The translations under genes were made by a program, and so were the position numbers. Source: Propionibacteriaceae bacterium (GTDB taxonomy: Bacteria > Actinomycetota > Actinomycetes > Propionibacteriales > Propionibacteriaceae). From it: DNA of 32,000 bases. The notes under the pieces were generated by a model, which saw nothing but the letters and a program-made list of their open reading frames with translations, was not told the DNA's origin and searched no databases. The stretch lies in NCBI GenBank assembly GCA_031256725.1, contig JAIRQE010000026.1, positions 1-32,000 on the forward strand, written 5' to 3'. Below, piece after piece: positions 1 to 27,354 of this stretch; positions within the stretch are counted from its first letter, which is position 1; the number at the start of each line of letters is the position of its first letter.

Positions 1-177
1 CGCCCCCTTAATATGAGTCTGGAAGTGCATCTGCCCATCCCGCTGACCAGGGGCCGGGTTCTCCACATCAATCCGCCACGTCCTACCATCAGACAATCGA
101 CCAGATTTCGCTGTATAACCATTCGGAAGTTTGATGCACACCTCACCATATCCATCAACAAGCAGGCCACGAGTCGC
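1..177 (-). CDS. Partial ORF of unknown function that runs off the left edge
   Basis: The minus-strand frame is open from 177 to 1 (..LLVDGYGEVCIKLPNGYTAKSGRLSDGRTWRIDVENPAPGQRDGQMHFQTHIKGA..). It follows the TAA-TGA double stop of the WD40 gene in the same frame. Only GTG/TTG starts are available. It is absent from the ORF track because it has no stop inside the window. Confidence 0.25.
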
Positions 178-180
178 TCA

Positions 181-1194
181 TTATACGATAATACGATGTA
201 CTGTAATCCCACTATCGTGACCGATTACAAGAACATCATCCACTGCTGCAAGACGTCCAACCCTTCCTTCTGTGGTAGATATCGTCCGTAGTTCTCGATT
301 ATGAATGACATTCCACAACTGAACCTCCCTCTGATCTGTAGCCATGGCAACAATCACCTCACCTCCTGAATGGACTACAGCCATATCGTTAATCAAAGCA
401 TCTCTACTGACCACTCCACGCGAAACAATGACACCAAGAGTAATATTAGAAACACAATATTTTCCATGCCAACCACTTGTCACCACATAATGATTTTTGT
501 TGCTTTCATATAAACACATCCTTCTCATGTGTCCAACTTTAACGAAACCACTTTGCACAATCTCATCGTCAACCCACCAACGCACGACACCATCCCCACC
601 ACCACTCACGATTATGGATGACTCATTCGATCGCGCCACTTCCACTTTCCTGACACCCCCCCGAACAACCCACGATCTCAGCACATCACCTGAGGTGACA
701 TCCCACACACGAACACTTCCATCACGCCCAGCAGAGACAACCTGACCCTCGCCTTCACGATACGCAACCGATCTCACCCAGTCTCCATGATTCCCAAAGA
801 CACGACGACACTGCCCTGTTACCACATCCCATAAGCGTACTGACCCATCATGTCCCCCCGAAACCACAACATGCTTACCCCCAAGCTGCCCATGTGCAAG
901 CGACGAGGACCACGCGGACCTGAGAATCCACCCCGGAATATGTGACCCATCATCCCGAAAGACGCCTACTGCGGTATCATATTCTGGGTCGCCCACGAAC
1001 ACCGACACATACTCACCAGACCATGCACATCTGAGTTGAACCTCATTCTCATATGAAATAGCAACCACGGGCTTACCGTTCATTTGCCACACGCAGAGAG
1101 TCTCAGGACCCATGCGCCCAACGCGAGGCACACGAATTGTGTACCCATCTGTGCTATTCCTGGAAGACATCTCTTTAAAATCATCCATACCCAA
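181..1194 (-). CDS. WD40 / beta-propeller repeat protein; by position a candidate immunity protein for the toxin-like fragment directly upstream
   Basis: 337-aa ORF with visible WD-type repeat units: GGHDGSVRLWDVVTGQ, SAGRDGSVRVWDVTSGD, SGGGDGVVRWW. The start is TTG at 1194 or ATG at 1188, 10-16 nt after the stop (1205-1207) of the toxin-like fragment. Confidence 0.75.
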   Translation of the reverse strand: MGMDDFKEMSSRNSTDGYTIRVPRVGRMGPETLCVWQMNGKPVVAISYENEVQLRCAWSGEYVSVFVGDPEYDTAVGVFRDDGSHIPGWILRSAWSSSLAHGQLGGKHVVVSGGHDGSVRLWDVVTGQCRRVFGNHGDWVRSVAYREGEGQVVSAGRDGSVRVWDVTSGDVLRSWVVRGGVRKVEVARSNESSIIVSGGGDGVVRWWVDDEIVQSGFVKVGHMRRMCLYESNKNHYVVTSGWHGKYCVSNITLGVIVSRGVVSRDALINDMAVVHSGGEVIVAMATDQREVQLWNVIHNRELRTISTTEGRVGRLAAVDDVLVIGHDSGITVHRIIV

Positions 1195-1204
1195 AGCCTA
1201 ATAC

Positions 1205-1510
1205 CTATCTCCAAAACACTGTCACTACCCAACCATTCTCATTGAGAACAACACCCATTCTCTCGTCCGTAAATAGCCATGTTCTATTCCCTTCTTGCCA
1301 CTGGGGATTTGATGAAGGACTATCAACGAGGGCCTCAGCTTCTCCCCTACTTATCAATCGATTGGATGCTTGATCCTCCGCATGGGGCGTCCAGCCATTA
1401 ACATGGCTCGGCCAGGGCTGATCGTCGTCGTCTGGGTCGGAGAAGTCGGTGGGTGGTCGTTTGATTCCTCCGGAGTTTCCTCCGCCAGCGGTGTCGAATG
1501 CTCGTGATGC
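1205..1510 (-). pseudogene. Orphan polymorphic-toxin C-terminal module without a start codon: Gly-rich/Pro-Pro linker plus a ~65-aa putative toxin domain
   Basis: Hand translation of the minus-strand frame between stops gives ASRAFDTAGGGNSGGIKRPPTDFSDPDDDDQPWPSHVNGWTPHAEDQASNRLISRGEAEALVDSPSSNPQWQEGNRTWLFTDERMGVVLNENGWVVTVFWR*. There is no ATG/GTG near the 5' end, so it is missing from the ORF track. The GGG..PP linker resembles those at 2030-2090 and 3290-3330. The tail (..GVVLNENGWVVTVFWR) is reminiscent of small RNase-type (DUF4258/RelE-like) toxin ends, but this is unverified. Confidence 0.45.
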
Positions 1511-1721
1511 TCAAACTGTGGTGGAACTAAGAATGTTCCCGGTTGTGGATACACCCTCACGTGACCCAGGAAAAACAACACAAAACACCTACAGATCCAC
1601 CAGTCGTACTGCACAACAACGATATGAAGATTTCAGTCACCATGTGAAAGATATCCATTGCGGGAGTGCGGATCATCTCACGAATCAGAATCCTGTACCA
1701 CCCTCGAGTGGGGTCACGTGT

Positions 1722-2417
1722 GTGGGGTGTGAAGGTGGGTTCATTCCTTGGGATACGGCTGCTGTTCCGGCGGACTTTGATGAGTTCTGGAAGTTTATTA
1801 AATGGTGGAGGGACTTGTATCGTTCTATTCCTCCTGGCCCTTGGAAAAAGTATGCTAGTATCGCATTTTATGGGGTGTTGGTAGTTTCCGTCATAGCGTA
1901 TTTAATAGCTAATTTGGAGGCTCTTGATGACGTCCTTGAGGAACTCGAAGACATCATCAATGAAGAAAAGGAGATGACCGAAAAAGAGTTCAATGATCTC
2001 CTTGAACAACTCAAAAATCATCCCGGCCAAAAAGGCGGAAACGGATCCGGTGGAGGCGGAAACAAACCACCAGCCCCACCTATAGGAGTACCCGACCCAG
2101 AAAATGACGACAAAGAGTGGCCAAAACAGGAAAACGGAAACTGTGAAGACGTGGCTAAAGAGATTTACAAGCGTCTTAATGAGAAGAACCAACTCAACGA
2201 TACGGGTGCCGAATTAGAAATTAAAGAGATTACATCCAAATTGCGAGTCTTGGGTCCATCTAAACATAATCCTGATGGTGATTGGTGGAATCATTATGTA
2301 GTAGTCGATAAGACCAATAGGCGAGTTTATGATGGAACTACTGGTCCGAATGGTGTTTCCTATGAGGAGTATAAGTCATGGTTTGAATATGACGATTTCA
2401 TAAATTGGGGGTTTTAA
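1722..2417 (+). CDS. Putative polymorphic toxin: TM anchor, acidic coiled coil, Gly/Pro linker and a C-terminal Cys-His-Asp (papain-fold-like) domain
   Basis: The track ORF is 1449..2417. Its first ~90 codons overlap the opposite-strand fragment and look non-coding. GTG at 1722 is the first plausible start, but this is uncertain. Visible elements are a TM helix (YASIAFYGVLVVSVIAYLIANL), a coiled coil (LEALDDVLEELEDIINEEKEMTEKEFNDLLEQL) and a linker (GGNGSGGGGNKPPAPP). The C-terminal domain has ordered Cys (GNCEDVA), His (WWNHYVVV) and Asp (RVYDG). Confidence 0.55.
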   Translation: MGCEGGFIPWDTAAVPADFDEFWKFIKWWRDLYRSIPPGPWKKYASIAFYGVLVVSVIAYLIANLEALDDVLEELEDIINEEKEMTEKEFNDLLEQLKNHPGQKGGNGSGGGGNKPPAPPIGVPDPENDDKEWPKQENGNCEDVAKEIYKRLNEKNQLNDTGAELEIKEITSKLRVLGPSKHNPDGDWWNHYVVVDKTNRRVYDGTTGPNGVSYEEYKSWFEYDDFINWGF

Positions 2418-2431
2418 GGAAAGGGGTGTAA

Positions 2432-3127
2432 ATGAAGACTGATCATGAGAAGGAAGTGTTTGATCTCGTAAGACTTATTTTTCGTGGAATTCGAACAGCA
2501 GTGATGAGGGAGGAGTTTTTTGCTGTGGTCGATTTTCTTCATGGTATAGATTCATGTTGCGGCTACCTTGACCTGAATGAAGGGTTCAATAATTGGCTCG
2601 TACCTAAACTCGGACTTAAGTCATGTTATAGGGAATGGCCGTGGCTGGTTTTGGATCTCTTTCACGTATCTGACGAGGAGGATAAAAGAGTTATTCCTGG
2701 TCAGGAGCGAGAACTCATTGCTGGGTTAGGAGCGTTGCTCTGTGAGTATATAGACGAAAAAAAGGCTGGAGATATTGATAGGCACTCTAGGAATCAGGTG
2801 TTCTCTATGGTTGAAACCATTTTTGAAACGCCTAGTGTTTTCGTCATGCGGGAAGAGTTCTTTGCGGTTGTTGACTATATCAATGGTATTGATTCGTGCT
2901 GTGAATACCTTGAGTTGAATCGTGGCTTCCATGATTGGCTTCTACCTAAACTTGGACTTCGATCCTGTAGCTATGCATGGCCGTGGTTGGTTCTCAAATT
3001 ACTTCCTGGATATGAAGCAGATCACATGGCGAGAGTCTTCCCGAGTCGTGAACGTGAACTCATTGATGGGCTTGGAAAACTCATGTGCGAATACCTGAAT
3101 GAGAAGCAATCTAATGCATTCCGATAA
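2432..3127 (+). CDS. Putative cognate immunity protein built from two tandem copies of one ~103-aa domain
   Basis: The ATG lies 14 nt after the toxin stop, preceded by AAGGAAAGGGG. Copy 1 is aa 9-111 (nt 2456-2764) and copy 2 is aa 123-226 (nt 2798-3109). They share VMREEFFAVVD, NGIDSCC.YL.LN.GF..WL.PKLGL.SC, WPWLVL, RELI.GLG.L.CEY..EK. They are roughly 60% identical by eye. Confidence 0.7.
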   Translation: MKTDHEKEVFDLVRLIFRGIRTAVMREEFFAVVDFLHGIDSCCGYLDLNEGFNNWLVPKLGLKSCYREWPWLVLDLFHVSDEEDKRVIPGQERELIAGLGALLCEYIDEKKAGDIDRHSRNQVFSMVETIFETPSVFVMREEFFAVVDYINGIDSCCEYLELNRGFHDWLLPKLGLRSCSYAWPWLVLKLLPGYEADHMARVFPSRERELIDGLGKLMCEYLNEKQSNAFR

Positions 3128-3192
3128 GTAATGATGCCTTGAATCGTCCGACAATAATCCTTATCAGATATATTATTTATTTTGCTATTTAG

Positions 3193-3342
3193 CCGACAAA
3201 ACTCATTGGCGAATTGAGAGAAGAGCTTGGGTTAACCGATGAAGAAATCGAAGAGTTCCTTGAATCCTTATTCGGGTTAGACTCGACAGGCGGTGGTGAC
3301 AATGATCCACCAAACAACGATCCACCTACAGGACTACGATGA
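3193..3342 (+). pseudogene. Remnant of another toxin gene of the same family: only the coiled-coil end and the Gly/Pro linker remain
   Basis: The frame between stops reads PTKLIGELREELGLTDEEIEEFLESLFGLDSTGGGDNDPPNNDPPTGLR*. LTDEEIEEFLESL parallels MTEKEFNDLLEQL of the 1722-2417 protein, and TGGGDNDPP parallels its GGGGNKPP linker. There is no start codon and no toxin domain. Confidence 0.45.
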
Positions 3343-3375
3343 TTAAAGAAACTTTAGAAACTGGGTCGTCGGGTT

Positions 3376-3522
3376 GTGATGGAAGACCACACAGGGGAAT
3401 CAACCTATGAATATGATGAATTAGGAAGACTGACACGTGTCACCCAGGCAAGTGGACGAGCTGTCACATACACCTACACCTGTGATGGATATATTAATGA
3501 GATTGGGTATCCCGATGGTTCT
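3376..3522 (+). pseudogene. RHS/YD-repeat fragment (relic)
   Basis: The first 49 codons of track ORF 3376..3750 read ESTYEYDELGRLTRVTQASGRAVTYTYTCDGYINEIGYPDGS. This matches the YD-repeat pattern YxYDxxGRL..(x)..YxY. Similarity ends after that point, and the ORF then runs into the XRE gene in another frame. Confidence 0.55.
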
Positions 3523-3674
3523 CATGGCGTGATGACGAGGTTTTCTCAACACCTGGTGGAGTGTTCTGGTATGGGTTCGCTCATAGTGTGGCACAACAGG
3601 CAACATGAAACCAATATGACGCACAGGGGCGCCAATGTGCGCCTCGGAGGCTACTTTGACACTTCACTCAAAAA

Positions 3675-3688
3675 GTGTAAAATTACAC
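3675..3688. promoter_or_regulatory. Perfect 6-2-6 inverted repeat GTGTAA-aa-TTACAC; candidate operator upstream of the XRE gene
   Basis: The repeat was read directly from the sequence. It lies 20-33 nt upstream of the ATG at 3708, just before the GGGAAGGGG Shine-Dalgarno sequence. Confidence 0.3.
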
Positions 3689-3707
3689 TATCTGGGAAGG
3701 GGTACAC

Positions 3708-4160
3708 ATGCCAGACAAGAGGGCAGAGTTCATCGCAACATGTGATGTGAAGCTACGCCTTGTCCGCGTGGAGGCCGATCTGACTCAAGAAGAGATGGCA
3801 TACGCTCTGGGGATTTCAAAGAAGACTCTCGTCGATATTGAAAAGGGTCGCAGGACCCTTGGATGGACTGGATCAGTGGCTCTGTGCGCAGTGTTCCCCA
3901 GTTCGGAGGTCATAGCATCCGCCTTTGGTGGGCATCCAAGCGAGATGATCCCGGCTTTAGCACGTACCGATCAAATTCCTCAGCGGGAATCTGGGGGAAA
4001 TCCCTGGTGGGAAACCATCGCTGACAACGGACAATTCATTATCGAGCAGAACCTTATCTCCCAGCATTATCGATTGCTCACCCATGACCGGACCAAGGTT
4101 GCGGCCTCCTTCGATATTGATGATCTTGTACCCCTCTTCCATGGGCAACCAAAGGAGTAG
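3708..4160 (+). CDS. XRE-family helix-turn-helix transcriptional regulator with an uncharacterised C-terminal domain
   Basis: The HTH signature LTQEEMAYALGISKKTLVDIEKGRR is visible. The stop lies 2 nt before the next gene, and AAGGAG inside its 3' end serves the downstream ATG. Confidence 0.8.
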   Translation: MPDKRAEFIATCDVKLRLVRVEADLTQEEMAYALGISKKTLVDIEKGRRTLGWTGSVALCAVFPSSEVIASAFGGHPSEMIPALARTDQIPQRESGGNPWWETIADNGQFIIEQNLISQHYRLLTHDRTKVAASFDIDDLVPLFHGQPKE

Positions 4161-4162
4161 TA

Positions 4163-6718
4163 ATGGAATACCTCATCCCCATTGTGAGCATAATTCTTGT
4201 GATCGTTGTACTAGTACAGTTAAGTGGGCTGCGCAACGAGGTACAACAGTTGCACCGTGAGTTGCGCCGTATGGATACCCGTCTTCACGGGCATCAACCC
4301 ACACCTGTACCATATCCTGCACCGCAGCAGCTGGTACCATATCCGATGCCAATGGTGCAGCCCCCGGCCTCCCAACCTCCGGCACCTCCAGTACCACAGA
4401 CACCAGTACCACAGTCCCCAGTATCGCAGATACCAGTTTCGGTGCAGACTCCTGTACCCCCAGCCGCTCAGACGGTACAGGATCAGGAGCGGAAGGTTCT
4501 TCCTGCCTATGTAGCGCCAGATCCCCAGGTCGGGGCCCCTGTTCAGCGTTCTCAAACCATGACTCTCCCCCCAATGCCAACGCCGTCACCTCGTCAAGGT
4601 TTCGTGATGAACGAGAACTTTATGGGCCGCAATATCTTGCCTCTGGTTGCCTCGGTACTGGGTCTCATCGGTCTGATCTTTCTGGGGATTCTCGTCGTCC
4701 CGTACATGTCAGATTTAGTACGGATTGCGCTGATGTTTGTGATCAGTGGGGCGATTGGTGAACTGGGATACTTCCTCAACAAGAAGAGTTCATCTGTACT
4801 CACCAGGGCACTTATTGGTACAGGTGTGGGTGGGGTCTTCATTTCCATCCTCGTCACCCATCTCTATTTCCATGCGATCAACGACATCACTGCCTTTGCT
4901 CTACTCGCAGTGTGGATCATCGCAAGTATGTGGCTCGCCAAGCATACGAATTCCCTTCTCATCTCGATCTTGGCTCATGCGGGAATGATGGGATCAATCG
5001 CTTTGGCGTACATCGGGCAGGTCAGTGATGACCAACTCATATTGGTTGTTGTCTATCAAATCATCGCCACTCTCGCGATAATTCTTGGCAATATCTTCTG
5101 GGTGAAGAAGACCTACCGTTTCGGGCTATTCGCATCCCAAGGAATGATCCTGATTTCTCTGATCACGATGTCTATCCGGTTGATGCCTGGAACTGAGATT
5201 CAGTCGATGTTCCCTGAGGGACTCATTGTGACCACCTTCTTTATCCAGTTCCTCGGAGGTACAGCCCTGGCGTACTTCATCTTCGTTTCCTGTGCTCGTG
5301 TGAAGGATGAAACTCTGACCGTGGTTCTGACAAGCGCGAATATCCTCATGTGGGCTGGAATCCTTGTTGCGGGAGTCATCAGGGTCATCAACTCGTTGGC
5401 GATTGCTCACATGGATGCGGATATCTGGAGCAACTCTGGTGAGCTTCCGTTAGCCTACATTGTGGGGTTGGCGATAGTTGTTGGAGTCACGTTTGTTGTG
5501 TCCATGATGGGATCGAAGCTCTCGATGAGGAAGTCCTTTGACTATTCCGCCATCGCCTCCTTGGCGATCCTCATGGGGGTCCTCATGGCGACACGTTATA
5601 CCCAATTCAGTATATGGAATGGGGCTCAGTACTCTCCAGAGATCCTGTGGTTCATCATCCCAGCTGGAGTTTTTATCCTTCTCGCGCGCGGATTCAAGTC
5701 TGAGGGATATACCTGGGCTGGTCGGGTCTTCTTGGCGATAGACACAGTCTTCATGGTACTAAGAGGCTATGGGAAGTTGAGTGAGTCGTGGACGCTCTGG
5801 GCCTCTGTGGGCTATCTGATCCTATCTGTGGGCTTGAGCTATCTGTCCACGAAGCAGGTCAGTGATGCGGCTGCCCACAAACACAGATCTGACTTCATTG
5901 TGATGCGTTTCCTGGGTGCCACAGTCTCACTGATGTCTATTACGATCACAGCAGACATTGGTTATGGCGGTGGACTGTTCATGATCGTCGTCGCAGCCAT
6001 GCTCGCTGCCCTGCACTTCTTTGGCAAGCCCGGACACCAACTCTTCTACCGCATCAGCGAATTGACCCTAGCCATCTTGACAGCCTTTGGCCTCTACCAG
6101 GTTGGGAGCAACCTTAGCCTACGGAAGGTGTGCCCAGAATGTGATCTAACCTCCAGCAACATCGATATCATTCTTCTCAGTGCTGCGGCCATCATCCTTA
6201 TCGCCATCTTCCTAGACAGGGCACGCCTAGCTGCTCGGAAGACCTCAGCCGCCCTGCGTACCCATAAGGAAGTTGATACAAATGTTGAACTGTTGTCGGG
6301 GATTGGCTTCAATTTTGCAGCTGTCGGGATCTGCCTGCCCTGGTTCCTTCCCGCAGTGAGCTCATACTGGGGATTCCCCGTCTCGTTGACCTGCATGGTG
6401 GTATCCCTGATCATCGTGGGGCTAGGCCTGTGGTCTCGGGTCAAGACTTTGAGGTTGTACGGCCTGGTCGTTGTCATCATCTGCGTACTGAAGATGGTCA
6501 CCCTCGACATTGGTTCTGTCACCTCGATCATGCGCGTGATTGCCCTCCTTGGAGGTGCTGCCATCTGCTTCGGGATCTCCGCCCTCTACAACTACACTGC
6601 CAAGTACTTTGACAAAGAGTTGGCCCAAGAGATTCCAGATGATACTCCTGTTCCGGTACAGGTGGGAGTCAGCGATTCACCAAGCCCACTTTCCCCAAGC
6701 CAGGGAGGTAGAACCTGA
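4163..6718 (+). CDS. Large polytopic membrane protein, DUF2339-like
   Basis: 851 aa. It begins with an N-terminal TM helix, then a short coiled coil (LRNEVQQLHRELRRMDTRL) and a Pro-rich spacer (PVPQ-type repeats). More than 15 hydrophobic helices follow. This architecture is typical of DUF2339. Assignment is by recollection only. Confidence 0.6.
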   Translation: MEYLIPIVSIILVIVVLVQLSGLRNEVQQLHRELRRMDTRLHGHQPTPVPYPAPQQLVPYPMPMVQPPASQPPAPPVPQTPVPQSPVSQIPVSVQTPVPPAAQTVQDQERKVLPAYVAPDPQVGAPVQRSQTMTLPPMPTPSPRQGFVMNENFMGRNILPLVASVLGLIGLIFLGILVVPYMSDLVRIALMFVISGAIGELGYFLNKKSSSVLTRALIGTGVGGVFISILVTHLYFHAINDITAFALLAVWIIASMWLAKHTNSLLISILAHAGMMGSIALAYIGQVSDDQLILVVVYQIIATLAIILGNIFWVKKTYRFGLFASQGMILISLITMSIRLMPGTEIQSMFPEGLIVTTFFIQFLGGTALAYFIFVSCARVKDETLTVVLTSANILMWAGILVAGVIRVINSLAIAHMDADIWSNSGELPLAYIVGLAIVVGVTFVVSMMGSKLSMRKSFDYSAIASLAILMGVLMATRYTQFSIWNGAQYSPEILWFIIPAGVFILLARGFKSEGYTWAGRVFLAIDTVFMVLRGYGKLSESWTLWASVGYLILSVGLSYLSTKQVSDAAAHKHRSDFIVMRFLGATVSLMSITITADIGYGGGLFMIVVAAMLAALHFFGKPGHQLFYRISELTLAILTAFGLYQVGSNLSLRKVCPECDLTSSNIDIILLSAAAIILIAIFLDRARLAARKTSAALRTHKEVDTNVELLSGIGFNFAAVGICLPWFLPAVSSYWGFPVSLTCMVVSLIIVGLGLWSRVKTLRLYGLVVVIICVLKMVTLDIGSVTSIMRVIALLGGAAICFGISALYNYTAKYFDKELAQEIPDDTPVPVQVGVSDSPSPLSPSQGGRT

Positions 6719-11140: not shown

Positions 11141-11209
11141 ATGAAGCGTCGTTTCTCTGTTCTTCCAGTCGCTGAGGTATACGGAGGCCCCCCAGTAGTT
11201 CATGTGTGA
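11141..11209 (+). CDS. 22-codon ORF at the head of the array (MKRRFSVLPVAEVYGGPPVVHV); possibly a collapsed T-type gene (T1 remnant) or a leader peptide
   Basis: A strong Shine-Dalgarno sequence AAGGAGGGGG lies 5-7 nt before the ATG. TTGACA at 11081-11086 lies upstream. The stop is 12 nt before I1. Similarity to other T tails is weak. Confidence 0.25.
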   Translation: MKRRFSVLPVAEVYGGPPVVHV

Positions 11210-11221
11210 AAGGATGGGACT

Positions 11222-11533
11222 ATGACGATTAAGGAAGATTCATCGGTTGACCAAATGTCAAATAACCTACAACGGAAAATCACTCATATCGCAGTACTCG
11301 TAGTGCCTTTGTCTTGCATGCTGGGGTTTTGTGGTGGCATTCTGGAGAAAACTGCGGTTGCGAAAAACGATGGTTTTTTGACCTATGGTATCCGCCTAGC
11401 TGCCATTCTGGTATTCACTTATACTATGATTCATTTATCACAACATGGAATTCGCGGGTGGCAGAAAATACTCTGCATCATAGTGTCACTACTTATTATA
11501 TGTGGAACAATGTGGTATGTGCTGAGCCTTTAG
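11222..11533 (+). CDS. I1: 103-aa three-TM membrane protein of the IRGW family (putative immunity protein)
   Basis: MTIKEDSS..ITHIAVLVVPLSCMLGFCGGIL..YGIRLAAILVFTYTMIHL..GIRGWQKILCIIVSLLIICGTMWYVLSL. AAAGGA lies 8 nt before the ATG. Confidence 0.7.
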   Translation: MTIKEDSSVDQMSNNLQRKITHIAVLVVPLSCMLGFCGGILEKTAVAKNDGFLTYGIRLAAILVFTYTMIHLSQHGIRGWQKILCIIVSLLIICGTMWYVLSL

Positions 11534-11568
11534 GATTTGAGCAGGGCGTCTATAAACTGACAGGCTAG
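11521..11568 (+). pseudogene. T2 remnant: only the last ~15 codons of a T-type gene (AEPLGFEQGVYKLTG*), fused onto the 3' end of I1
   Basis: This is the tail of track ORF 11314..11568. The rest of that ORF is an off-frame shadow of I1. The FEQGVY peptide is shared with T3 and T5. Confidence 0.4.
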
Positions 11569-11747
11569 AGGGGGGAAGGAATAGTGGTTGGGTGTGTTGA
11601 ATATCGGGGCTTCGTGAATCGGTATAATCAACTCTCGAACACTCAGCGGATTCAGTAGTCTCTGTGGCAAATGCAAAGTCAGGTAGGTTGCCAGCAACAT
11701 AGTGAATTGAATGCTCGTCGGAGCTAATACTTGGCGGAGGTGTCTCA

Positions 11748-12059
11748 TTGCCGGAAAATAAGGAACAGAATTCTCGAAAACTTGGGGTAGATGCGTTGAA
11801 ATCAGTAAGATACTTTGCCCTGTTCGTGTTGCCATTGGTAGTCTTGTTGGGTTATTCGGGGGTAATGCTAGAAAGTAATTTCGAAAGAATGGAAACTGTA
11901 CCGTATATTGGCGTTCGCGTGGCTTCGGCTATGATGATAGTTGCCCTAATACTTGGGTTCCGTTCTCAAGGAATACGAGGATGGTATCTTATTGTATGTT
12001 CTGTTGCTGGAACAGTCGTTTGGTTATTGACAGTTTGGTATTTCTGGCCAAGCGTTTGA
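11748..12059 (+). CDS. I2: 103-aa three-TM IRGW-family membrane protein
   Basis: TTG start with GGCGGAGG 7 nt upstream. Sequence: ..VRYFALFVLPLVVLLGYSGVML..VPYIGVRVASAMMIVALILGF..GIRGWYLIVCSVAGTVVWLLTVWYFW. Confidence 0.7.
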   Translation: MPENKEQNSRKLGVDALKSVRYFALFVLPLVVLLGYSGVMLESNFERMETVPYIGVRVASAMMIVALILGFRSQGIRGWYLIVCSVAGTVVWLLTVWYFWPSV

Positions 12060-12160
12060 GCTTGGTTGCGGTTGCTGAGGCTCGGAAGTCTCGTGAGCAT
12101 GTGGCTGGCTCATCCAAACTATGATGTCATCAAGGCATCGGAAACTCCTGAACCTGCGGA

Positions 12161-12283
12161 GTGAGACTGTCGGAAAACGGTGGGTGGGGGCTTGGTCTGA
12201 CATGCCGAGGAACGTATACATGCACCTCGAAGAATGTAACTCTGTATGCGAAGTGGAAAGCCGTGGGTGGTACTATGACGATT
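12161..12283 (+). pseudogene. Relic sequence: possible Flg_new (Listeria-Bacteroides) repeat end (..KNVTLYAKWKAV) followed by a relic I-type gene start (GGTMTI)
   Basis: Track ORF 12161..12355 reads ..GGWGLGLTCRGTYTCTSKNVTLYAKWKAVGGTMTISVV... The VTLYAKW ending is typical of Flg_new repeats. Positions 12266-12283 match 11213-11230 (the I1 start region) at 16 of 18 nt. Confidence 0.3.
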
Positions 12284-12308
12284 TCAGTCGTTAAACACTT
12301 TACGTGTT

Positions 12309-12725
12309 GTGATGTACTTGCCAGAAGATCCCACAGTGCCAGAAGAAGCAGCTGATAACTTCTTTCAAGGTATGATGAAGGTGGATAATCCAGAAGCAGT
12401 TTTAGCCATAATAACTACAGAGGGTAGGGCAGCTGCAGTGGCAGCTATCTGCACGGGCTTGATGGTATCATCTTTCGCGGCAGGTCTGACAGTAGCTGCT
12501 ATTAATGCATCAGCGTATTTGGACTATACGGCTCAACAGAATGATCTCATTGATGCATATTATAGTTCTTCAAGTGGTTTCCTAGTGGTTGATTCTATGG
12601 TCATCATCACAAATCGTAATGGGATAATATATACAGATCGCTATGTTGACTATTACAGAGCAACCGATATCAATGCTGCGCCGGGAGGATCCTTTGAACA
12701 AGGGGTATATCATATAGGCTCATAG
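12309..12725 (+). CDS. T3: small Ala/Gly-rich protein ending in FEQGVYHIGS (putative toxin/bacteriocin-like partner of I3)
   Basis: 138-aa ORF. An alternative ATG at 12372 gives 117 aa, similar to T5. The central segment is RAAAVAAICTGLMVSSFAAGLTVAAINA. It aligns with T5 at AV..II.E.G, AAG, Q.N, G.LV.V, YRAT and FEQGV. The stop lies 33 nt before I3. Confidence 0.6.
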   Translation: MMYLPEDPTVPEEAADNFFQGMMKVDNPEAVLAIITTEGRAAAVAAICTGLMVSSFAAGLTVAAINASAYLDYTAQQNDLIDAYYSSSSGFLVVDSMVIITNRNGIIYTDRYVDYYRATDINAAPGGSFEQGVYHIGS

Positions 12726-12758
12726 TGGGAAAATTGGAGATTTGATAGAAGGACAGCA

Positions 12759-13070
12759 ATGGAGAATAGTGAATTCGGCATTGATTCGAAGAAAAGAGCG
12801 AAAGAAACATCTCACTTTTTTGTATTATATCTAATTCCAATGTCATGCTTGATTGGGTATTCCCTTGTCACGGCGCAGTCGAACGCAAATCATGAAGGCG
12901 GAATGTTGGCGCTTGGCGTGGGCCTATGCGTTTCTTTGTTGATTGTCCACACTATATACGAATTACGCACTCACAATATACGGGGTTGGTTTGCGGTTGC
13001 CTGCATTGTAGGAGCAATGATTACCCAAGGGCTAACAATATGGTATTGTCTGGCTTCAGTGAAGACGTGA
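12759..13070 (+). CDS. I3: 103-aa three-TM IRGW-family membrane protein
   Basis: GAAGGA lies 6 nt before the ATG. Sequence: ..SHFFVLYLIPMSCLIGYSLV..MLALGVGLCVSLLIVHTIY..NIRGWFAVACIVGAMITQGLTIWYCL. Confidence 0.7.
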   Translation: MENSEFGIDSKKRAKETSHFFVLYLIPMSCLIGYSLVTAQSNANHEGGMLALGVGLCVSLLIVHTIYELRTHNIRGWFAVACIVGAMITQGLTIWYCLASVKT

Positions 13071-13292
13071 TTGGGAATTCGCAGATCGTATGCTTCGAGT
13101 TCTAATTCGAGAAGTGGAATGGGAATTGTCGTATCTTTATGATTTCCTAGCTTATAAAGCATCCGAAGTAGCGGCTTCCTTATTATAGATGACTCATTTA
13201 CTAATGCGTCGCATGCGGTCTACTATAGCTACGGTGTTGATGTAGTCAGCCTAGGAGTATTCAAGCCCGGGATATATGATATTCTATCATAG
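13063..13292 (+). pseudogene. T4: broken T-type gene with N- and C-terminal pieces in different frames and the central segment deleted
   Basis: Frame 1 (13063-13188) reads RRDWEFADRMLRVLIREVEWELSYLYDFLAYKASEVAASLL*, compared with the T5 N-terminus EEWDAVVRIIAEAG. Frame 0 (13158-13292) reads SIRSSGFLIIDDSFTNASHAVYYSYGVDVVSLGVFKPGIYDILS*, compared with the T3 tail SSSGFLVVDS..FEQGVYHIGS*. Confidence 0.45.
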
Positions 13293-13357
13293 TATGACGT
13301 AAAATGGGTTCTGATGGATTACAGTAAGTGGGAAGGTTGTCTTTACCCTTTAATGAT

Positions 13358-13717
13358 ATGAAAAGCAGGGAAAACTTGAATCCTGAGATTGAGGTGTCCA
13401 AGATAGTCGAGCATGACCAGCCACCTATAACTGATGGGCGGATAGTGAAGATGCGAAGGGCACTTGGTTACTTCATATCATTCTTATTGCCAGTAGGTTG
13501 CCTCATGGGTTGTGGCATTGTGTTAATTCAGCCGGAGGCAGGAGAGAAAATTAGATACTTTCCTTATATTGGGGTTCATGTGGCCCTAGCCATGTTGCTT
13601 GTGTACATCGTCTACGACTTTCCATTGCGTCGAATACGAGGTCAGTATGCCGTTGGTTGTTTTGTGGGGTTGATGATAGTTCTGTCTCTGACGATATGGT
13701 ATCTCATGACTCATTAG
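13358..13717 (+). CDS. I4: three-TM IRGW-family membrane protein (motif variant IRGQ) with a longer N-terminus
   Basis: The track ORF starts at GTG 13328, but ATG 13358 (MKSRENLN..) fits the other paralogues better. Neither has a clear Shine-Dalgarno sequence. Sequence: ..YFISFLLPVGCLMGCGIVL..FPYIGVHVALAMLLVYIVY..RIRGQYAVGCFVGLMIVLSLTIWYLM. Confidence 0.65.
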   Translation: MKSRENLNPEIEVSKIVEHDQPPITDGRIVKMRRALGYFISFLLPVGCLMGCGIVLIQPEAGEKIRYFPYIGVHVALAMLLVYIVYDFPLRRIRGQYAVGCFVGLMIVLSLTIWYLMTH

Positions 13718-13763
13718 TAATGATAGTTATTTAGTAGAGACGCGCCCTTTTTGCTAGGAGCTA

Positions 13764-14102
13764 TTGTGGATTGAGAAATCATCCGAGGAAGAGTGGGATG
13801 CGGTCGTTAGGATAATAGCAGAGGCTGGTCTTGTTGATACGGCCGCTGAAATTGCCGTTCGATTTACTCTACCTGGGAAGGTTGCAGCAGGGATTGTGTC
13901 AATATTGGCTGGGATGATAGAGGTTGATATGATCCACCAGAGAAACATGCTTCGTGTGGCAATCACTGCCTGCCCAGACAACGGTCTGGTGGAGGTGCAC
14001 CAGGTCGTTGGTACGCGTCTCCCCATCACGTATAGGGCGACCATGGAAGTTGAGGGTAGTGGTGATTTCGAGCAAGGTGTTCATCGATATACCGCTCGCT
14101 AG
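13764..14102 (+). CDS. T5: 112-aa T-type protein ending in FEQGVHRYTAR
   Basis: A TTG start is the only option in frame, and AGGAG lies just 3 nt upstream, so it may not be efficiently translated. It is homologous to T3 along its whole length. The stop lies 30 nt before I5. Confidence 0.5.
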   Translation: MWIEKSSEEEWDAVVRIIAEAGLVDTAAEIAVRFTLPGKVAAGIVSILAGMIEVDMIHQRNMLRVAITACPDNGLVEVHQVVGTRLPITYRATMEVEGSGDFEQGVHRYTAR

Positions 14103-14132
14103 AAAAGTGTCGTTTACTCTTAAGGATTTTAA

Positions 14133-14445
14133 ATGAAAGAAACGGATGATATAAGCTCAGAGGAGCATCAGGGTCAGACTTTTCGAATAGTGGGTTACTT
14201 GGTAATGCGCATTGTTCCTTTGTCCATCGTGTTTGGATTTGCTGCTGCCCAGAGTGTAAGGCTCGAAGCAACTGGAATGGAAGGCATACTACGACTCATT
14301 ATACACTATATCACTTATAGTTGTATTTGGGGGTAACTCTATCGAACTGAATAATTATCGGATAAAAGGTTGGGCGCGGTTTGCCTGTTTCGTGGCATCA
14401 CTGGGTCTTGTAACCGCGACAGCTTGGTATGCACTTACTCTTTAG
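14133..14445 (+). pseudogene. I5: IRGW-family gene (variant IKGW) disrupted by a frameshift near 14300
   Basis: Frame 0 (track ORF 14133..14336) reads MKETDD..IVGYLVMRIVPLSIVFGFAAA..GILRLII and then stops. The family sequence continues in the +1 frame as ..TISLIVVFGGNSIELNNYRIKGWARFACFVASLGLVTATAWYALTL*, with its stop at 14443-14445. Confidence 0.6.
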
Positions 14446-23646: not shown

Positions 23647-24678
23647 ATGCATCTTTCTCCAGCTACCTTGGTTAGTACAGACCCCCGTCTGATTCACCTC
23701 GCCCAAGCATCGGCAGCCGCCAGTGGTGGAACCCTTTCCGTGGTGAGCCATGCCGAGGATCTTCGGGCCTTGTGGCGTACCTCCTCTGCGATCCTCATTG
23801 GTGCTGACTGTATCGAAGAGGTGGTGAGTTGGGCCCTGCCCAGGCGAGAGCAGGTCTATCTCCTTGGGTTTGAGGAATCCCAGGAGGTACTCTGCCAATG
23901 GTCGGTGCCTTTGGGGGCCTCAGTCATCCAACTGCCTGATGGAGGGAAATGGCTGTCCCGAGTCATTGCTGGGCATACTCGTGATCTGGAGACTGGGGTC
24001 GTGGTGGAAGTCAGGGGTGGTGCAGGAGGAGTGGGAGCCTCAACACTGTGCGCGGGCCTAGGCGTGGTTGCGCAAGCGAAAACTCTCGCGGTGGCTCTCG
24101 TGGATGCCGACCCTTGCGGAGGTGGTCTCGATTTATTGATGGGTGCAGAGAGTGCTCCAGGGTGGCGGTGGGATAAATTACGTAAGGCTGTCGGGCAGAT
24201 TGCCGATGTCACATCAATGTTGCCAAGGGCTGAGGGCATCACCATGGTGTCCATGGAGCGGGGTTCTTCTGAGCCTGTACCCATGGCCGCTCTTGAGGCT
24301 GTCATCGACTGTCTCGCAAGAACCCATGACCTTGTCCTTGTTGATCCGGGGCGTACAACAGGGGAACTTCAGTCGGTCAAGCGTTCCGTGATCCTCTCGA
24401 CGCAAACCGTGCGTTCCTTAGCCTCCACAAAGGTGAGGTTGAGCGAGTTCACAACAAAGAATTCTGCCTTGGTAATACGTAAGGGTGGATCTGTGGGAGC
24501 CGGTGATGCAGCGCGGGCCTTGGATCTTCCACTCATCGGGATTCTCCCCAATGTGGTCGAACTTCCACGCCTAGCAGATCGGGGGATACCGCCCTCACTG
24601 GGTGGTGCGTGGAAGAAATCCTGTTCCAAAATTCTCAACTGGTGCATGGGTGAGTCGATTCCTGCGAGGGGGGTCTGA
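23647..24678 (+). CDS. CpaE/Ssd-like septum-site-determining / secretion-neighbourhood ATPase-like protein
   Basis: It has a deviant Walker-like VVEVRGGAGGVGASTLCAGLG and DADPCGGGLDLLMG. It is the first gene of the tad-like cluster, as in the mycobacterial Rv3660c-Rv3654c arrangement. Confidence 0.8.
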   Translation: MHLSPATLVSTDPRLIHLAQASAAASGGTLSVVSHAEDLRALWRTSSAILIGADCIEEVVSWALPRREQVYLLGFEESQEVLCQWSVPLGASVIQLPDGGKWLSRVIAGHTRDLETGVVVEVRGGAGGVGASTLCAGLGVVAQAKTLAVALVDADPCGGGLDLLMGAESAPGWRWDKLRKAVGQIADVTSMLPRAEGITMVSMERGSSEPVPMAALEAVIDCLARTHDLVLVDPGRTTGELQSVKRSVILSTQTVRSLASTKVRLSEFTTKNSALVIRKGGSVGAGDAARALDLPLIGILPNVVELPRLADRGIPPSLGGAWKKSCSKILNWCMGESIPARGV

Positions 24679-25808
24679 TGACAGATTCAGTCTCCTCAGT
24701 ACGCCGTCACCTCGCCCTCATTGGACGTCCACCCAGCGCTCAAGATATTGCCGAAGCACTTCGGGCAACCGGACAGGTTGTCTCTGATGCGGCAGTGTTG
24801 GAGATCCAACATGGAATTACTCGCGACTCTGACGGAGTCGGGATCTTGGAGCCCCTTCTTGCCATTCCCCAGGTTACCGACATTGTTGTGAACGGCCCGG
24901 ATCAGATTTTCATGGATCGCGGTGGAGGCCTGGAACTCACTCAACTTCAGTTTGAGTCCGACGATGCCGTTCGGCAATTAGGGGTACGCTTAGCTGCCTT
25001 GGTGGGGCGTCGCCTTGATGATGGTTCCCCCTTCGTGGATGCTCGACTACCCAATGGGATTCGTTTCCACGCCGTTCTCACAGGGATTGCCCATCCAGGA
25101 ACATGTCTGTCTTTGAGGATCCCAACCAAGAGTCATTTGAGTTTGGATGACTGGGAGAGATTCGGTGGAGTCGATCCACAAGCAGGGGAGATCCTTAGAC
25201 GGTTGATCGAAAAGAGGTCTGCCTTCCTCATCTCGGGAGGTACAGGGTCAGGCAAGACAACCCTCATGGGTGCCCTCCTGTCTTTGGTCGAGCCTTCCCA
25301 GCGACTTGTGATTGTTGAGGATTCACGAGAACTTGAACCCAACCATCCCCACACAGTGTGGTTGGAGGCAAGACCAGCGAACGGTGAGGGTGCTGGGTTG
25401 GTTACCATGACTGACTTAGTGCGACAGGCTCTCAGGATGCGTCCAGATCGGCTGATTGTAGGAGAGGTACGCGGTGGAGAACTCAGAGACCTTCTCCAAG
25501 CTCTCAATACCGGTCATGAGGGTGGCTGCGGAACCATCCACGCGAACAGTGTGACTGACCTTCCCGCGCGATTGGAGGCCCTGGGTGCATTAGGTGGGCT
25601 CTCGGCTGAGGCCACCCAAGCGCAGGTTTCATCAGCCATACGGGTACTCATCCATGTGGCCCGCCGGGGCCCTAATCGAGAGGTCGCAGAAATTGGGGTA
25701 CTCAAAAAGGAATCCCAGGGGGTGAAAGCTCATGTGGCTTGGAGGCGCTGCGGTGACCTAGCCGAACCGGGCGAAGGGATGGCTGAACTTCTGGAGGTTT
25801 TAGCATGA
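24678..25808 (+). CDS. tadA: TadA/CpaF-family secretion ATPase
   Basis: It has Walker A GGTGSGKTT, RPDRLIVGEVRGGE and a His box (GHEGGCGTIHAN). The start overlaps the upstream stop (TGATG). Confidence 0.9.
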   Translation: MTDSVSSVRRHLALIGRPPSAQDIAEALRATGQVVSDAAVLEIQHGITRDSDGVGILEPLLAIPQVTDIVVNGPDQIFMDRGGGLELTQLQFESDDAVRQLGVRLAALVGRRLDDGSPFVDARLPNGIRFHAVLTGIAHPGTCLSLRIPTKSHLSLDDWERFGGVDPQAGEILRRLIEKRSAFLISGGTGSGKTTLMGALLSLVEPSQRLVIVEDSRELEPNHPHTVWLEARPANGEGAGLVTMTDLVRQALRMRPDRLIVGEVRGGELRDLLQALNTGHEGGCGTIHANSVTDLPARLEALGALGGLSAEATQAQVSSAIRVLIHVARRGPNREVAEIGVLKKESQGVKAHVAWRRCGDLAEPGEGMAELLEVLA

Positions 25809-26611
25809 TCGCTCTTGCTGTATTGGCGGCTATCGTCTGTGTGTGGCTGCTCTTTCCGGCTCCAGGGCCGGGCTTGGATCGACTTTCGCCAAAGACGCGT
25901 CCTAGTCGAAATGTGGGTCGATGGAAGATCTGCTTCGGTGTTGTGGTCGCGGGTGGGATCCTAGCGATTCTGGTACAGCCCCTCGTGCTCGTAGTTGCCC
26001 TAGGAATGGTGGGAATGACCCTGGTCTGGGTTGTGGTGGGGCGGATGAATCTAAAGAAAGCTCTTCAAAGGACAAAGGATGTGGCGCGAGCCGCACAGAT
26101 CTTGGAGTCCCTATTGGCTTTGGGTCACATCCCAACCACGGCTTTGAAGCTCGCCTCTGAGGAATGCCCAGTGATAGAGCCGGCTGTTGCTTCAGTACAC
26201 ATGGGTGGCGACCCCTGGGAGGTTATGGAGCATCTTGCTCGGGTGCCTGGCCAGGCTGGGTTGTCAGCGATTGGTCAAGCATGGAGGGTCTCCCATGTCT
26301 CTGGTTCATCCATGCATGAGGGGTTGGAGCGGGTGCGTAAAAACCTTGAAGAAGCAGCGAGTACAGCCGATGTGGTTGCAGGTGAACTTGCTGGCCCTCG
26401 GGCTACGGGGCAGTTGTTGGCTGTACTTCCCCTGATTGGAATCGCGATGGCCTATGGGCTGGGTGCTGATCCCATCCAGTTCTTCACATCTAGTGTCATG
26501 GGGCGGGCCTGCTTCATAGTGGGGCTTGGTCTTGGATGTTTGGGTGTGATTTGGAGCGAGATTTTGGCCATACAAGTAAGCGGACTGGGAGGGTCAAGAA
26601 AGAAGGAATAA
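25805..26611 (+). CDS. tadB: TadB-like type II secretion system F-family membrane protein
   Basis: It has a membrane, soluble, membrane architecture. It overlaps the tadA stop (ATGA). Position in the cluster supports the call. Confidence 0.75.
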   Translation: MIALAVLAAIVCVWLLFPAPGPGLDRLSPKTRPSRNVGRWKICFGVVVAGGILAILVQPLVLVVALGMVGMTLVWVVVGRMNLKKALQRTKDVARAAQILESLLALGHIPTTALKLASEECPVIEPAVASVHMGGDPWEVMEHLARVPGQAGLSAIGQAWRVSHVSGSSMHEGLERVRKNLEEAASTADVVAGELAGPRATGQLLAVLPLIGIAMAYGLGADPIQFFTSSVMGRACFIVGLGLGCLGVIWSEILAIQVSGLGGSRKKE

Positions 26612-27354
26612 TGATTGGGAATATGTGGATGGCAGCAGTACTCGCCGGCTTCGCGGTGTGGCTGTGGATGCCACCTGATGGGCTGACTCGTCTAGAGCCA
26701 GTGATCACATGGAAGTTGCCCTCGTGGGCCCAACCTCGACCTGAAGCCATGGAATCAAAGAAAAGATGGATGGTTGGTATTGCGGCAGGAATCGGGGTTG
26801 TTATCTATTGTTGGGATTTCTCACCCGCTGTGGTTTTCCTGGGGCCATTAGTGGCCTGCGGGGCCTGGGTTTTTCTGGGACGAATGGAACCAGCAGGGGT
26901 ACGAAAAAGCCGCCAGGAGACTCTCTACGCTCTGCCTCAGGCCTTGGATCTCATTCAGGCATGTCTCAAGACTGGTCAGCCCTTGCGTACTGCTACTCAA
27001 ACAGTCTCACAGGCGATGGGGCCACCGGTGTCCGGACTCTTGGGCTCAGTGACTAGTGCTATTTCAGTGGGGATGTCGGATGATCAGGCATGGCAGGTGT
27101 TAACCGAGGACCCCACAATTGGGGTGGTTGCCCGCGATATTGCTAGGAGTACGACCTGGGGGACTGCCATCACTGATGTACTTGCACAGCACAGTGCAGA
27201 TCTGAGGCGTTTCGGTTCACAGGATCGATTGAAAGCAGCCAAACAGGTGGGGGTTAAGTCTGTCATGCCCTTAGGGATCTGTTATCTTCCGGCCTTTGCG
27301 CTGATGGGAGTGGTACCAGTCATTGCAGCTGGGGTGTCGGGGTTGTTCGGATGA
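26611..27354 (+). CDS. tadC: TadC-like type II secretion system F-family membrane protein
   Basis: The ATG at 26611 overlaps the tadB stop (TAATG), so the track start at 26536 is rejected. The architecture resembles tadB. Confidence 0.7.
   Translation: MIGNMWMAAVLAGFAVWLWMPPDGLTRLEPVITWKLPSWAQPRPEAMESKKRWMVGIAAGIGVVIYCWDFSPAVVFLGPLVACGAWVFLGRMEPAGVRKSRQETLYALPQALDLIQACLKTGQPLRTATQTVSQAMGPPVSGLLGSVTSAISVGMSDDQAWQVLTEDPTIGVVARDIARSTTWGTAITDVLAQHSADLRRFGSQDRLKAAKQVGVKSVMPLGICYLPAFALMGVVPVIAAGVSGLFG

Follow-up and report, generated by a model that had tools for sequence, protein, structure and literature searches.

Remains of RHS toxins: a probable cluster of orphan C-terminal cassettes on an actinobacterial chromosome

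Results and discussion

We analysed a stretch of 32,000 nucleotides (nt) from a Propionibacteriaceae bacterium (GenBank assembly GCA_031256725.1, contig JAIRQE010000026.1, positions 1 to 32,000 of the forward strand), which is referred to below as the window. Within its first 3,750 nt, pieces of polymorphic toxins lie on both strands, together with two genes in the position of immunity genes and a relic of RHS repeats (Table 1). A sequence-only reading of this DNA had pointed to three such toxin pieces, and translation placed the peptides that it quoted exactly where it had seen them. We are reasonably confident that, in positions 1-3750, orphan C-terminal cassettes of RHS toxins form a degenerate cluster on an actinobacterial chromosome. 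The spacing between toxins and following genes was also as had been described: on the plus strand, 14 nt separate the toxin stop codon (2415-2417) from the next ATG (2432), and on the minus strand, 10 or 16 nt separate the stop codon (1205-1207) from the next start, depending on whether this is TTG 1194 or ATG 1188. The two pairs are, however, not the complete toxin-immunity pairs they had been taken for, since neither toxin is complete; both are 5′-truncated, and they abut between 1511 and 1541.

Table 1. Features of the toxin cluster at the left end of the window.
Feature	Position	Strand	Basis
Toxin-like fragment, startless, directly after the double stop of the WD40 gene, running off the left edge	1-177	-	Translation, tblastn, pairwise comparison
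WD40 beta-propeller protein (337 amino acids) in the position of an immunity gene	181-1194	-	Pfam WD40
5′-truncated toxin tip: linker, DUF4258/Ntox49-like domain, stop codon	1205-1510	-	Translation, Pfam below cut-off, Ralstonia homology
Breakpoint zone where two oppositely oriented truncated tips meet	1511-1541		Stop in the minus frame, onset of plus-strand homology
Pre-toxin region of an RHS C-terminal extension	1542-2117	+	BLASTP to P0002 and P0010, hydropathy scan
C-terminal toxin domain with Cys-His-Asp set, including stop codon	2118-2417	+	56 representatives, alignment, AlphaFold
Probable cognate immunity gene (231 amino acids), tandem duplication	2432-3127	+	Alignment, pairwise comparison with the family from six loci
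Short relic resembling acidic helix and Gly/Pro linker	3193-3342	+	Translation, weak linker similarity
Relic of two YD (RHS) repeats	3376-3530	+	Pfam RHS_repeat, TIGR01643

The plus-strand piece as an RHS tip

The plus-strand reading frame, which contains ..EKEMTEKEFNDLLEQLKNHPGQKGGNGSGGGGNKPPAPPIGVPDPENDDKEWPKQENGNCEDV.., is open from 1449 to 2417, and homology to related proteins sets in at about nt 1542, which moves the beginning of the piece upstream of position 1722, where it had been thought to start. Residues 32-322 of this open reading frame (ORF) align with P0002, a protein of 373 amino acids (aa; BLASTP E 2e-32), and P0010 (632 aa) aligns over the toxin domain as well as over ORF residues 14-118 (BLASTP E 8e-11 for the upstream part). 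One gene caller placed the start of a 231-aa product at GTG 1722; coding homology begins 180 nt before this codon. For the plus-strand tip, no start codon accompanied by a ribosome-binding site is apparent, nor is there a credible start within its pre-toxin region. A word-indexed protein search with the 231-aa product returned only the product itself.

P0002 begins MYAWDDPVNLMDPSGEM, and P0010 contains ..SYAYAWDDPVNRVDPSGMW.. after a sequence resembling an RHS core end (YSYDPWG.., RWYEPTWGRFLSPD), despite which Pfam scores no RHS_repeat in this protein. The sequence-only reading had regarded the junction in front of the toxin domains as distinct from the Rhs motif PxxxxDPxGL, and hence as the possible mark of a less-described toxin lineage. 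This part of it does not stand: P0002 (locus L005) and P0010 (locus L006) have a canonical RHS core end, YAWDDPVN(L/R)(M/V)DPSG, and the same pre-toxin region and linker follow it at a distance of about 80-330 residues. As both relatives that share the linker carry the core end, the lineage is an RHS lineage, and at most, the Gly/Pro linker provides an additional, internal boundary. The core-end motif PxxxxDPxG(L/M) is present in P0002, P0010, P0008, P0012 and L002; it is absent from the window because the plus-strand tip is cut about 80 residues downstream of the place that the motif occupies in P0002. Full RHS repeat arrays are found in the relatives P0018, P0027, P0046 and L002, the last of which, a Kitasatospora protein of 2,313 aa, combines a signal peptide and a PT-HINT domain with its RHS repeats and ends in the same toxin domain as the plus-strand piece. 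Judged by these homologies, the plus-strand piece is a 5′-truncated C-terminal region of an RHS toxin, and for the annotation of the genome this means that the 231-aa "gene" called at 1722-2417 is a truncated RHS tip.

The pre-toxin region matched no Pfam family. Four elements make it up: the conserved segment YRST..AQR..CG..HL..P.SGV, a hydrophobic helix at about nt 1848-1928, an acidic helix at about nt 1914-2015 and, entered from the latter, the Gly/Pro linker GGNGSGGGGNKPPAPPIGVPDPENDDKE at about 2022-2117. In a hydropathy scan, the hydrophobic helix was the one strongly hydrophobic helix of the region, and P0002 has it too.

A C-terminal domain with a Cys-His-Asp set

When 1.8 billion representatives were searched exhaustively with HMMER (threshold E<=1e-3), 56 proteins were found. 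Nearly all of them align only to the final ~100 residues of the query, and the aligned part is the C-terminal end of their own sequence. Their lengths lie between about 60 and 2,930 aa, and the long ones (among them proteins of 2,172-2,930 aa) carry RHS repeats and/or a PT-HINT pre-toxin domain upstream of the toxin. The domain thus forms the extreme C-terminus behind different carriers, namely RHS, PT-HINT and ALF-repeat proteins. Those relatives that have a named source come from Actinomycetota. When the toxin-domain alignment was used in a word-indexed search, 10 proteins only were retrieved.

In an alignment of 33 C-terminal domains, the residues C22, A26, H72, D85, T88 and G92 are invariant, and the consensus reads WP...NC..CA..IQ..IGG.I..I.P....LGPS..NP.G.W..H.VVVK.GRVYDGFTGP.G..I..YK.QF.Y.D.I.FGF. 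The copy in the window retains the catalytic Cys, His and Asp. Between 2160 and 2250, an insertion of 11 residues, NEKNQLNDTGAELE, replaces the IGG motif that is kept in at least 90% of the relatives, which may be a sign of early decay. An AlphaFold2 model built from an 11-sequence alignment (predicted local distance difference test, pLDDT, 84.5; predicted template modelling score, pTM, 0.78) shows a long helix from the Cys followed by five strands, with Cys21 at the start of the helix (21-39), His71 at the start of the fourth strand (71-76) and Asp84 just past the fifth (81-83). This order of elements matches that of papain-like enzymes, from which we infer, on the strength of motif order and a predicted model, that the domain is papain-like.

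The sequence-only reading had proposed Tox-PL and DUF4258 or BECR families for the toxin domains, a guess that pointed in the right direction, if weakly. For the plus-strand domain, no Pfam model was significant, Tox-PL-2 reaching E 0.01 at best (in 3 of the 33 members) and Tox-PLDMTX E 0.072 for the sequence of the window; for the minus-strand domain, as described below, DUF4258 stays below its cut-off in the window and passes it in a Ralstonia homologue. A profile search of the PDB with the toxin domain came back empty, and sequence searches of the PDB with the toxin, the toxin profile, the minus-strand piece and the immunity profile gave no credible match. Foldseek on the model of the toxin found nothing below E 0.8, and the only biologically related structure among its matches was the SseI deamidase domain (E 1.1-1.4, template modelling score 0.40, probability 0.18).

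As an observation on one of the relatives, the toxin copy of Saccharothrix obliqua (locus L004, 9440-10262) is in frame through the catalytic Cys, then loses the frame and reaches a stop before the His and Asp. From its sequence, this toxin copy looks like a pseudogene, next to an immunity gene that has stayed intact.

The immunity gene on the plus strand

The 231-aa product of the gene that follows the plus-strand toxin domain consists of two 54%-identical copies (2432-2785 and 2786-3124) of a unit of about 115 residues. It belongs to a family, given as about 100-135 aa in size, of which a member lies directly downstream of the toxin domain in six other loci. The downstream gene encodes 111 aa in Kitasatospora (L002; pairwise E 5e-6 against 2432-3127), 100 aa in Saccharothrix (L004; E 9e-7), 135 aa in a metagenome contig after P0010 (L006; E 7e-31), 248 aa in a metagenome contig after P0002 (L005; E 2e-21) and 84 aa in a Streptomyces plasmid (L009; E 0.001); for the gene of about 116-120 aa in Streptosporangiaceae (L003), the comparison is by alignment only. 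What speaks most strongly for 2432-3127 as the cognate immunity gene is that this pairing recurs with RHS, PT-HINT and ALF carriers alike. Together with the carriers behind which the toxin domain is found, the pairing also bears out the proposal that the locus is a depot of truncated C-terminal pieces of polymorphic toxins with their immunity genes.

The family has no Pfam model. By hydropathy, the immunity protein of the window has no hydrophobic segment and neither a signal peptide nor a membrane segment. This suggests that the immunity protein resides in the cytoplasm and that the target of the toxin therefore does so too.

The fusion of two repeats is seen in the window (231 aa) and in the 248-aa gene of L005 (1334-2080), while the other loci, four of the six, are recorded with a single unit. 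Since the two-repeat form occurs only in the window and in the locus of its closest relative, the duplication seems to be specific to the lineage with the hydrophobic pre-toxin. In the plasmid of Streptomyces sp. NBC_01136 (NZ_CP108633.1; L009, 947-4636), the toxin domain ends an ALF-repeat protein of 1,118 aa beside a gene for an S1-family peptidase, an umbrella-toxin-like arrangement; the annotated start of the 84-aa immunity homologue after this toxin seems to be placed too far downstream.

A second, different tip on the minus strand

From 1510 to 1205, the minus strand reads ASRAFDTAGGGNSGGIKRPPTDFSDPDDDDQPWPSHVNGWTPHAEDQASNRLISRGE...VVTVFWR* and includes ..AGGGNSGGIKRPPTDFSDPDDDDQPWPSH..; the piece is immediately preceded by a stop codon, and its first possible start is TTG 1357. 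The piece begins with a linker of about 30 residues rich in Gly, Pro and Asp, followed by a domain of about 65 residues. This domain covers the whole Pfam profile DUF4258 (PF14076) with E 0.02-0.025 and 15.3-15.6 bits, and does not reach the gathering cut-off of 25. A tblastn search of plasmids showed the piece to be 39% identical to the C-terminus of an ORF of Ralstonia pseudosolanacearum (L007, 5764-6219; database E 0.2, pairwise E 3e-8), which starts with the RHS core end DPLRFVDPLGL and itself passes the DUF4258 cut-off at 25.3. DUF4258 overlaps Ntox49 and has been placed among the RNase-type toxins of the BECR group (bioRxiv 10.64898/2026.08.28.747851, PMC11980606). The homology to a Ralstonia Rhs tip and this placement therefore identify the minus-strand piece as a second, different RHS tip, whose domain, judging from its sequence, is probably a BECR RNase.

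A word-indexed protein search with the piece gave no match. In a single-sequence AlphaFold model, it has one helix and four strands, with a pLDDT of only 49. A tblastn match in Paraburkholderia was rejected as spurious, as it falls inside a gene of glycosyl-transferase family 3.

The gene that follows on the minus strand matches Pfam WD40 (E 1.6e-13) and many beta-propeller models, and differs in this from the small immunity or antitoxin proteins that neighbour DUF4258/Ntox49 toxins. By its position, it is a candidate immunity gene, unproven as such. The Ralstonia tip, the sole homologous toxin tip that was found, is followed by a gene of 99 aa unrelated to the WD40 protein, so that an immunity role of the latter is only positional; with this one tip, no recurrent pairing of WD40 protein and toxin came to light. 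No homologue of the WD40 protein was found on plasmids. In the text of the 2012 catalogue of polymorphic toxins (Zhang et al. 2012), the term "WD40" has 0 occurrences, and the beta-propellers in the passages shown from it are carrier repeats.

Behind the double stop of the WD40 gene, a frame without a start codon (..DGRTWRIDVENPAPGQRDGQMHFQ.. / ..RIDVENPAPGQRDGQMHFQ..) runs up to the edge of the window. This fragment matched no Pfam family. It resembles the C-terminal region of a 734-aa plasmid protein of Rhodococcus qingshengii (tblastn E 2e-3, pairwise E 4e-11), directly after which lies a gene of 180 aa. The array of toxin relics thus probably extends beyond the left edge of the window.

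Linkers and relics

The motif GG..K(P/L)PP.PP....P.P..(D)WP is common to the plus-strand piece, P0002 and P0010. The linker of the minus-strand piece reads AGGGNSGGIKRPP..DPDDDDQPWP, and the relic at 3193-3342 reads PTKLIGELREELGLTDEEIEEFLESLFGLDSTGGGDNDPPNNDPPTGLR* and stops where a toxin domain would begin. That all three pieces have the same pre-toxin architecture, as the sequence-only reading held, could not be demonstrated statistically. In BLASTP comparisons with the plus-strand piece, 3193-3342 was matched at E 8.3, and no linker alignment was obtained with the minus-strand piece. Furthermore, when a linker profile made from the plus-strand piece and its two relatives was ranked over about 930 other six-frame segments of the window (931 including the plus-strand piece), the minus-strand piece came 1st (E 0.19) and 3193-3342 came 5th (E 2.4). 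Two breakpoints of the locus adjoin linkers, and the plus-strand toxin domain is also joined to other carriers that lack this linker.

The YD fragment reported in the same reading is real (Pfam RHS_repeat E 4.3e-12, TIGR01643 E 3.2e-5). It spans two repeats, which are the only YD/RHS repeats in the window, and is in the same frame as 3193-3342, with two stop codons between them.

It is possible, though doubtful, that the resemblance of the linkers is one of composition only, in which case neither the minus-strand piece nor 3193-3342 would be specifically related to the plus-strand pre-toxin, and the relic at 3193-3342 might not be coding at all or might be the front part of the gene to which the YD fragment belonged. 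Gly/Pro/Asp-rich spacers are common before toxin domains, and the poor BLASTP and profile E-values point this way, as does the frame shared by 3193-3342 and the YD relic; a repeat search of the window moreover found no DNA repeats that link the toxin pieces. Against this stand the 1st and 5th ranks among about 930 segments, the location of both pieces within a toxin cluster and, for the minus-strand piece, a linker directly in front of a toxin domain that has independent support. The similarity among the three linkers is thus suggestive only.

Wreckage with two truncated tips head to head

The minus-strand frame is shut by a stop codon at 1511-1513, and the plus-strand homology to P0002 sets in at residue 32 of the ORF (about nt 1542); therefore, two truncated tips abut head to head. 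Translation of the other minus frames of the intervening zone revealed no coding remnant. The GC content is 0.40-0.47 in the plus-strand cassette and the relics downstream of it, 0.49-0.53 in the WD40 gene and the minus-strand tip, and 0.53-0.57 in flanking housekeeping genes (BipA, DUF2339 membrane protein, ABC transporter genes).

Start codon, N-terminal delivery part and repeat shell are all absent from the two tips, the plus-strand homology reaching the breakpoint without a start and the minus-strand piece being likewise startless. As for a full-length parent gene with a shared core end, downstream of which orphan modules would be expected to lie, the 32-kb window contains no ORF of RHS size, and the end of the core is not kept in the cluster. 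A metagenome scan with the 291-aa plus-strand tip gave no match either. The head-to-head layout might bring to mind an invertible switch; this was rejected, as inverted repeats are of a chance size only (14-18 nt), and no recombinase gene is nearby. The locus is wreckage and not a switch.

Several points weigh against orphan RHS cassettes. No full-length parent was found, such that the idea of orphans of a parent elsewhere has to do without one. The plus-strand tip keeps no RHS core-end sequence, and the homology through which recombination with a parent usually proceeds is thereby missing. The papain-like assignment of its domain draws on motif order and a predicted model, with no significant match in Pfam or the PDB, and nothing but its position speaks for the WD40 gene as an immunity gene. 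Finally, the plus-strand tip keeps 291 homologous codons without a frameshift, along with its catalytic residues, and could be expressed from an internal start, for instance GTG 1722.

This last point leads to a different view of the plus-strand pair, namely that it is a live, self-contained module in which a membrane-anchored toxin made from GTG 1722 or another internal start is held in check by the product of 2432-3127, much like a toxin-antitoxin (TA) module. The frame is indeed intact, with Cys, His and Asp kept; the immunity gene is intact as well, starting 14 nt past the toxin and preceded by a GGAAAGGGG motif; the gene caller did give a 231-aa product; and a Salmonella orphan Rhs is reported as a type II TA module (PMC7043789). 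Nevertheless, we regard a live module as quite unlikely: the RHS homology that continues in the same frame for 180 nt upstream of 1722 indicates a truncated gene and not a start, no Shine-Dalgarno-like sequence precedes 1722, and the replacement of IGG by 11 residues may be decay.

That the three pieces constitute a little-described lineage outside RHS, defined by coiled coil, Gly-rich stretch and Pro-Pro linker, is highly improbable and already contradicted. In its favour, the pre-toxin segment has no Pfam family, and the window shares the motif GG..K.PP.PP...P.P..(D)WP with P0002 and P0010. Against it, the linker is preceded by a canonical RHS core end in each of these two relatives (with RHS-core-like sequence further upstream in P0010, which Pfam does not score as RHS_repeat), a YD relic lies within the locus, and the toxin domain occurs on other carriers without the linker.

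Expected function of the intact system and of its remains

If the cluster consists of orphan RHS cassettes, established knowledge of RHS toxins suggests how an intact relative would work. A Sec-secreted RHS protein would enclose its C-terminal region in a shell of YD repeats; this region would be cleaved off at the DPxG motif of the core end and delivered to a neighbouring cell, and a small cytoplasmic immunity protein encoded directly downstream would protect the producer. Here, only tips would be left. On the plus strand, these would be a truncated tip (hydrophobic helix, acidic helix, Gly/Pro linker and papain-like domain) with an intact, tandem-duplicated immunity gene, and further downstream the linker relic and the two-repeat YD relic. 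On the minus strand, there would be a tip cut just upstream of its linker, with a DUF4258/Ntox49-like domain, the WD40 gene in the position of an immunity gene and then a further toxin-like fragment.

Without a start codon or a delivery part, the toxin pieces are most likely silent. The immunity genes could still protect against the toxins of relatives, and the pieces might serve as a recombination stock for a full-length rhs gene elsewhere. As the immunity protein lacks both signal peptide and membrane segment, the target of the papain-like toxin is probably in the cytoplasm, where the toxin might work as a deamidase, protease or transglutaminase, for example; the hydrophobic pre-toxin helix may help the toxin to cross the membrane of the target cell.

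We also considered a bolder proposal, that the segment between RHS core end and toxin (YRST..CG motif, hydrophobic helix, acidic helix and Gly/Pro linker) serves some actinobacterial RHS toxins as a separate module for membrane entry that can be reused, with the linker, not DPxG, as the point of toxin swapping, and that a WD40 beta-propeller acts as an immunity protein, a class not listed for polymorphic toxins. The part on the linker is suggested by the position of two breakpoints of the locus at such linkers, with a DUF4258-like domain after one of them. We think the proposal unlikely.

Relation to known systems

From Enterobacteria, orphan rhs tips accompanied by immunity genes are well known (PMC7043789, PMC4436062, PMC10539506). 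RHS, HINT and papain-like modules of polymorphic toxins were catalogued in 2012 (Zhang et al. 2012), and umbrella toxins were described in 2024 (PMC11062931). The present locus resembles the orphan rhs-CT/rhsI modules of Enterobacteria (E. coli, Salmonella, Serratia) in that its tips are truncated, have an immunity gene close behind, are clustered and have a GC content below that of the surrounding chromosome. Unlike those, its pieces face away from each other and are not lined up after a parent, of which nothing is visible, and where classical orphans keep homology to the core end, the plus-strand tip has lost it. Furthermore, the host is an actinobacterium, so that no type VI secretion system (T6SS) is involved, in contrast to the orphan rhs genes of Enterobacteria.

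The Sec-secreted 2,313-aa RHS toxin of Kitasatospora shares the C-terminal toxin domain (49% identity) and has the same immunity family directly downstream; it differs in being full-length and in having a PT-HINT pre-toxin instead of the hydrophobic helix and Gly/Pro linker. With the Streptomyces protein UmbC (ALF-repeat), the link is the 1,118-aa ALF-repeat protein by the S1-peptidase gene described above, which ends in the same toxin domain with an immunity homologue after it; the carrier is another one, and there is nothing ALF-like in the window.

Among toxin families, the papain-like group (Tox-PL1, Tox-PL-2 and the Tox-PLDMTX/SseI deamidases) shares RHS and HINT carriers with the plus-strand domain, although none of its models scores significantly. 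The signature "NC, H, D" of Tox-PL1 (Zhang et al. 2012) has the same residue order as the domain in the window, in which NC opens a helix and H and D lie within strands or close to them. As to DUF4258/Ntox49, the minus-strand piece is like this family in covering the full profile and in its identity to a Ralstonia tip that passes the cut-off, and unlike it in its own 15 bits against a cut-off of 25 and in its WD40 neighbour.

The locus is thus real but of an ordinary kind; it adds an actinobacterial example of orphan RHS tips and opens no new class of system. A modest novelty lies in two families that are uncatalogued and in a pre-toxin segment that is undescribed, the latter in three sequences only. 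What it does bring into view is a toxin-immunity pair outside curated libraries, a Cys-His-Asp domain and an immunity family of about 110 residues, common to RHS, PT-HINT and umbrella-toxin (ALF-repeat) carriers.

Chromosomal surroundings

An identical contig of 1.7 kb (L001) is present in the SRA run SRR14710887. In the window itself, the DUF2339 membrane protein next to the cluster (851 aa, 4163-6718) has no relative detectable by tblastn in 185,579 GTDB species representatives, which were searched with six 8-residue patterns.

The region 11200-14400 on the plus strand holds a second cassette array of low GC content (0.45). It comprises five paralogous two-helix membrane proteins of about 103 aa with a shared IRGW..C...W motif (11222-11533, 11748-12059, 12759-13070, 13328-13717 and a truncated copy at 14133-14336), among which two related ORFs (12309-12725 and 13764-14102; pairwise E 8e-4) are interspersed that end in G(S/D)FEQGV(Y/H). 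The relic of such a tail, ..GFEQGVYKLTG, ends at 11568. None of the proteins of this array matched a Pfam family, and it looks like another array of toxins or bacteriocins with membrane immunity proteins.

The window carries genes for an Actinobacterial holin-X and for DUF7059, which, along with the Actinomycetota sources of the toxin-domain relatives, point to an actinobacterial chromosome. Downstream of endonuclease III and the holin-X gene, positions 23647-27354 encode a Tad-type pilus set with a ParA/CpaE-like ATPase, a T2SSE/TadA ATPase and a T2SSF/TadC-like protein, which is ordinary chromosomal context.

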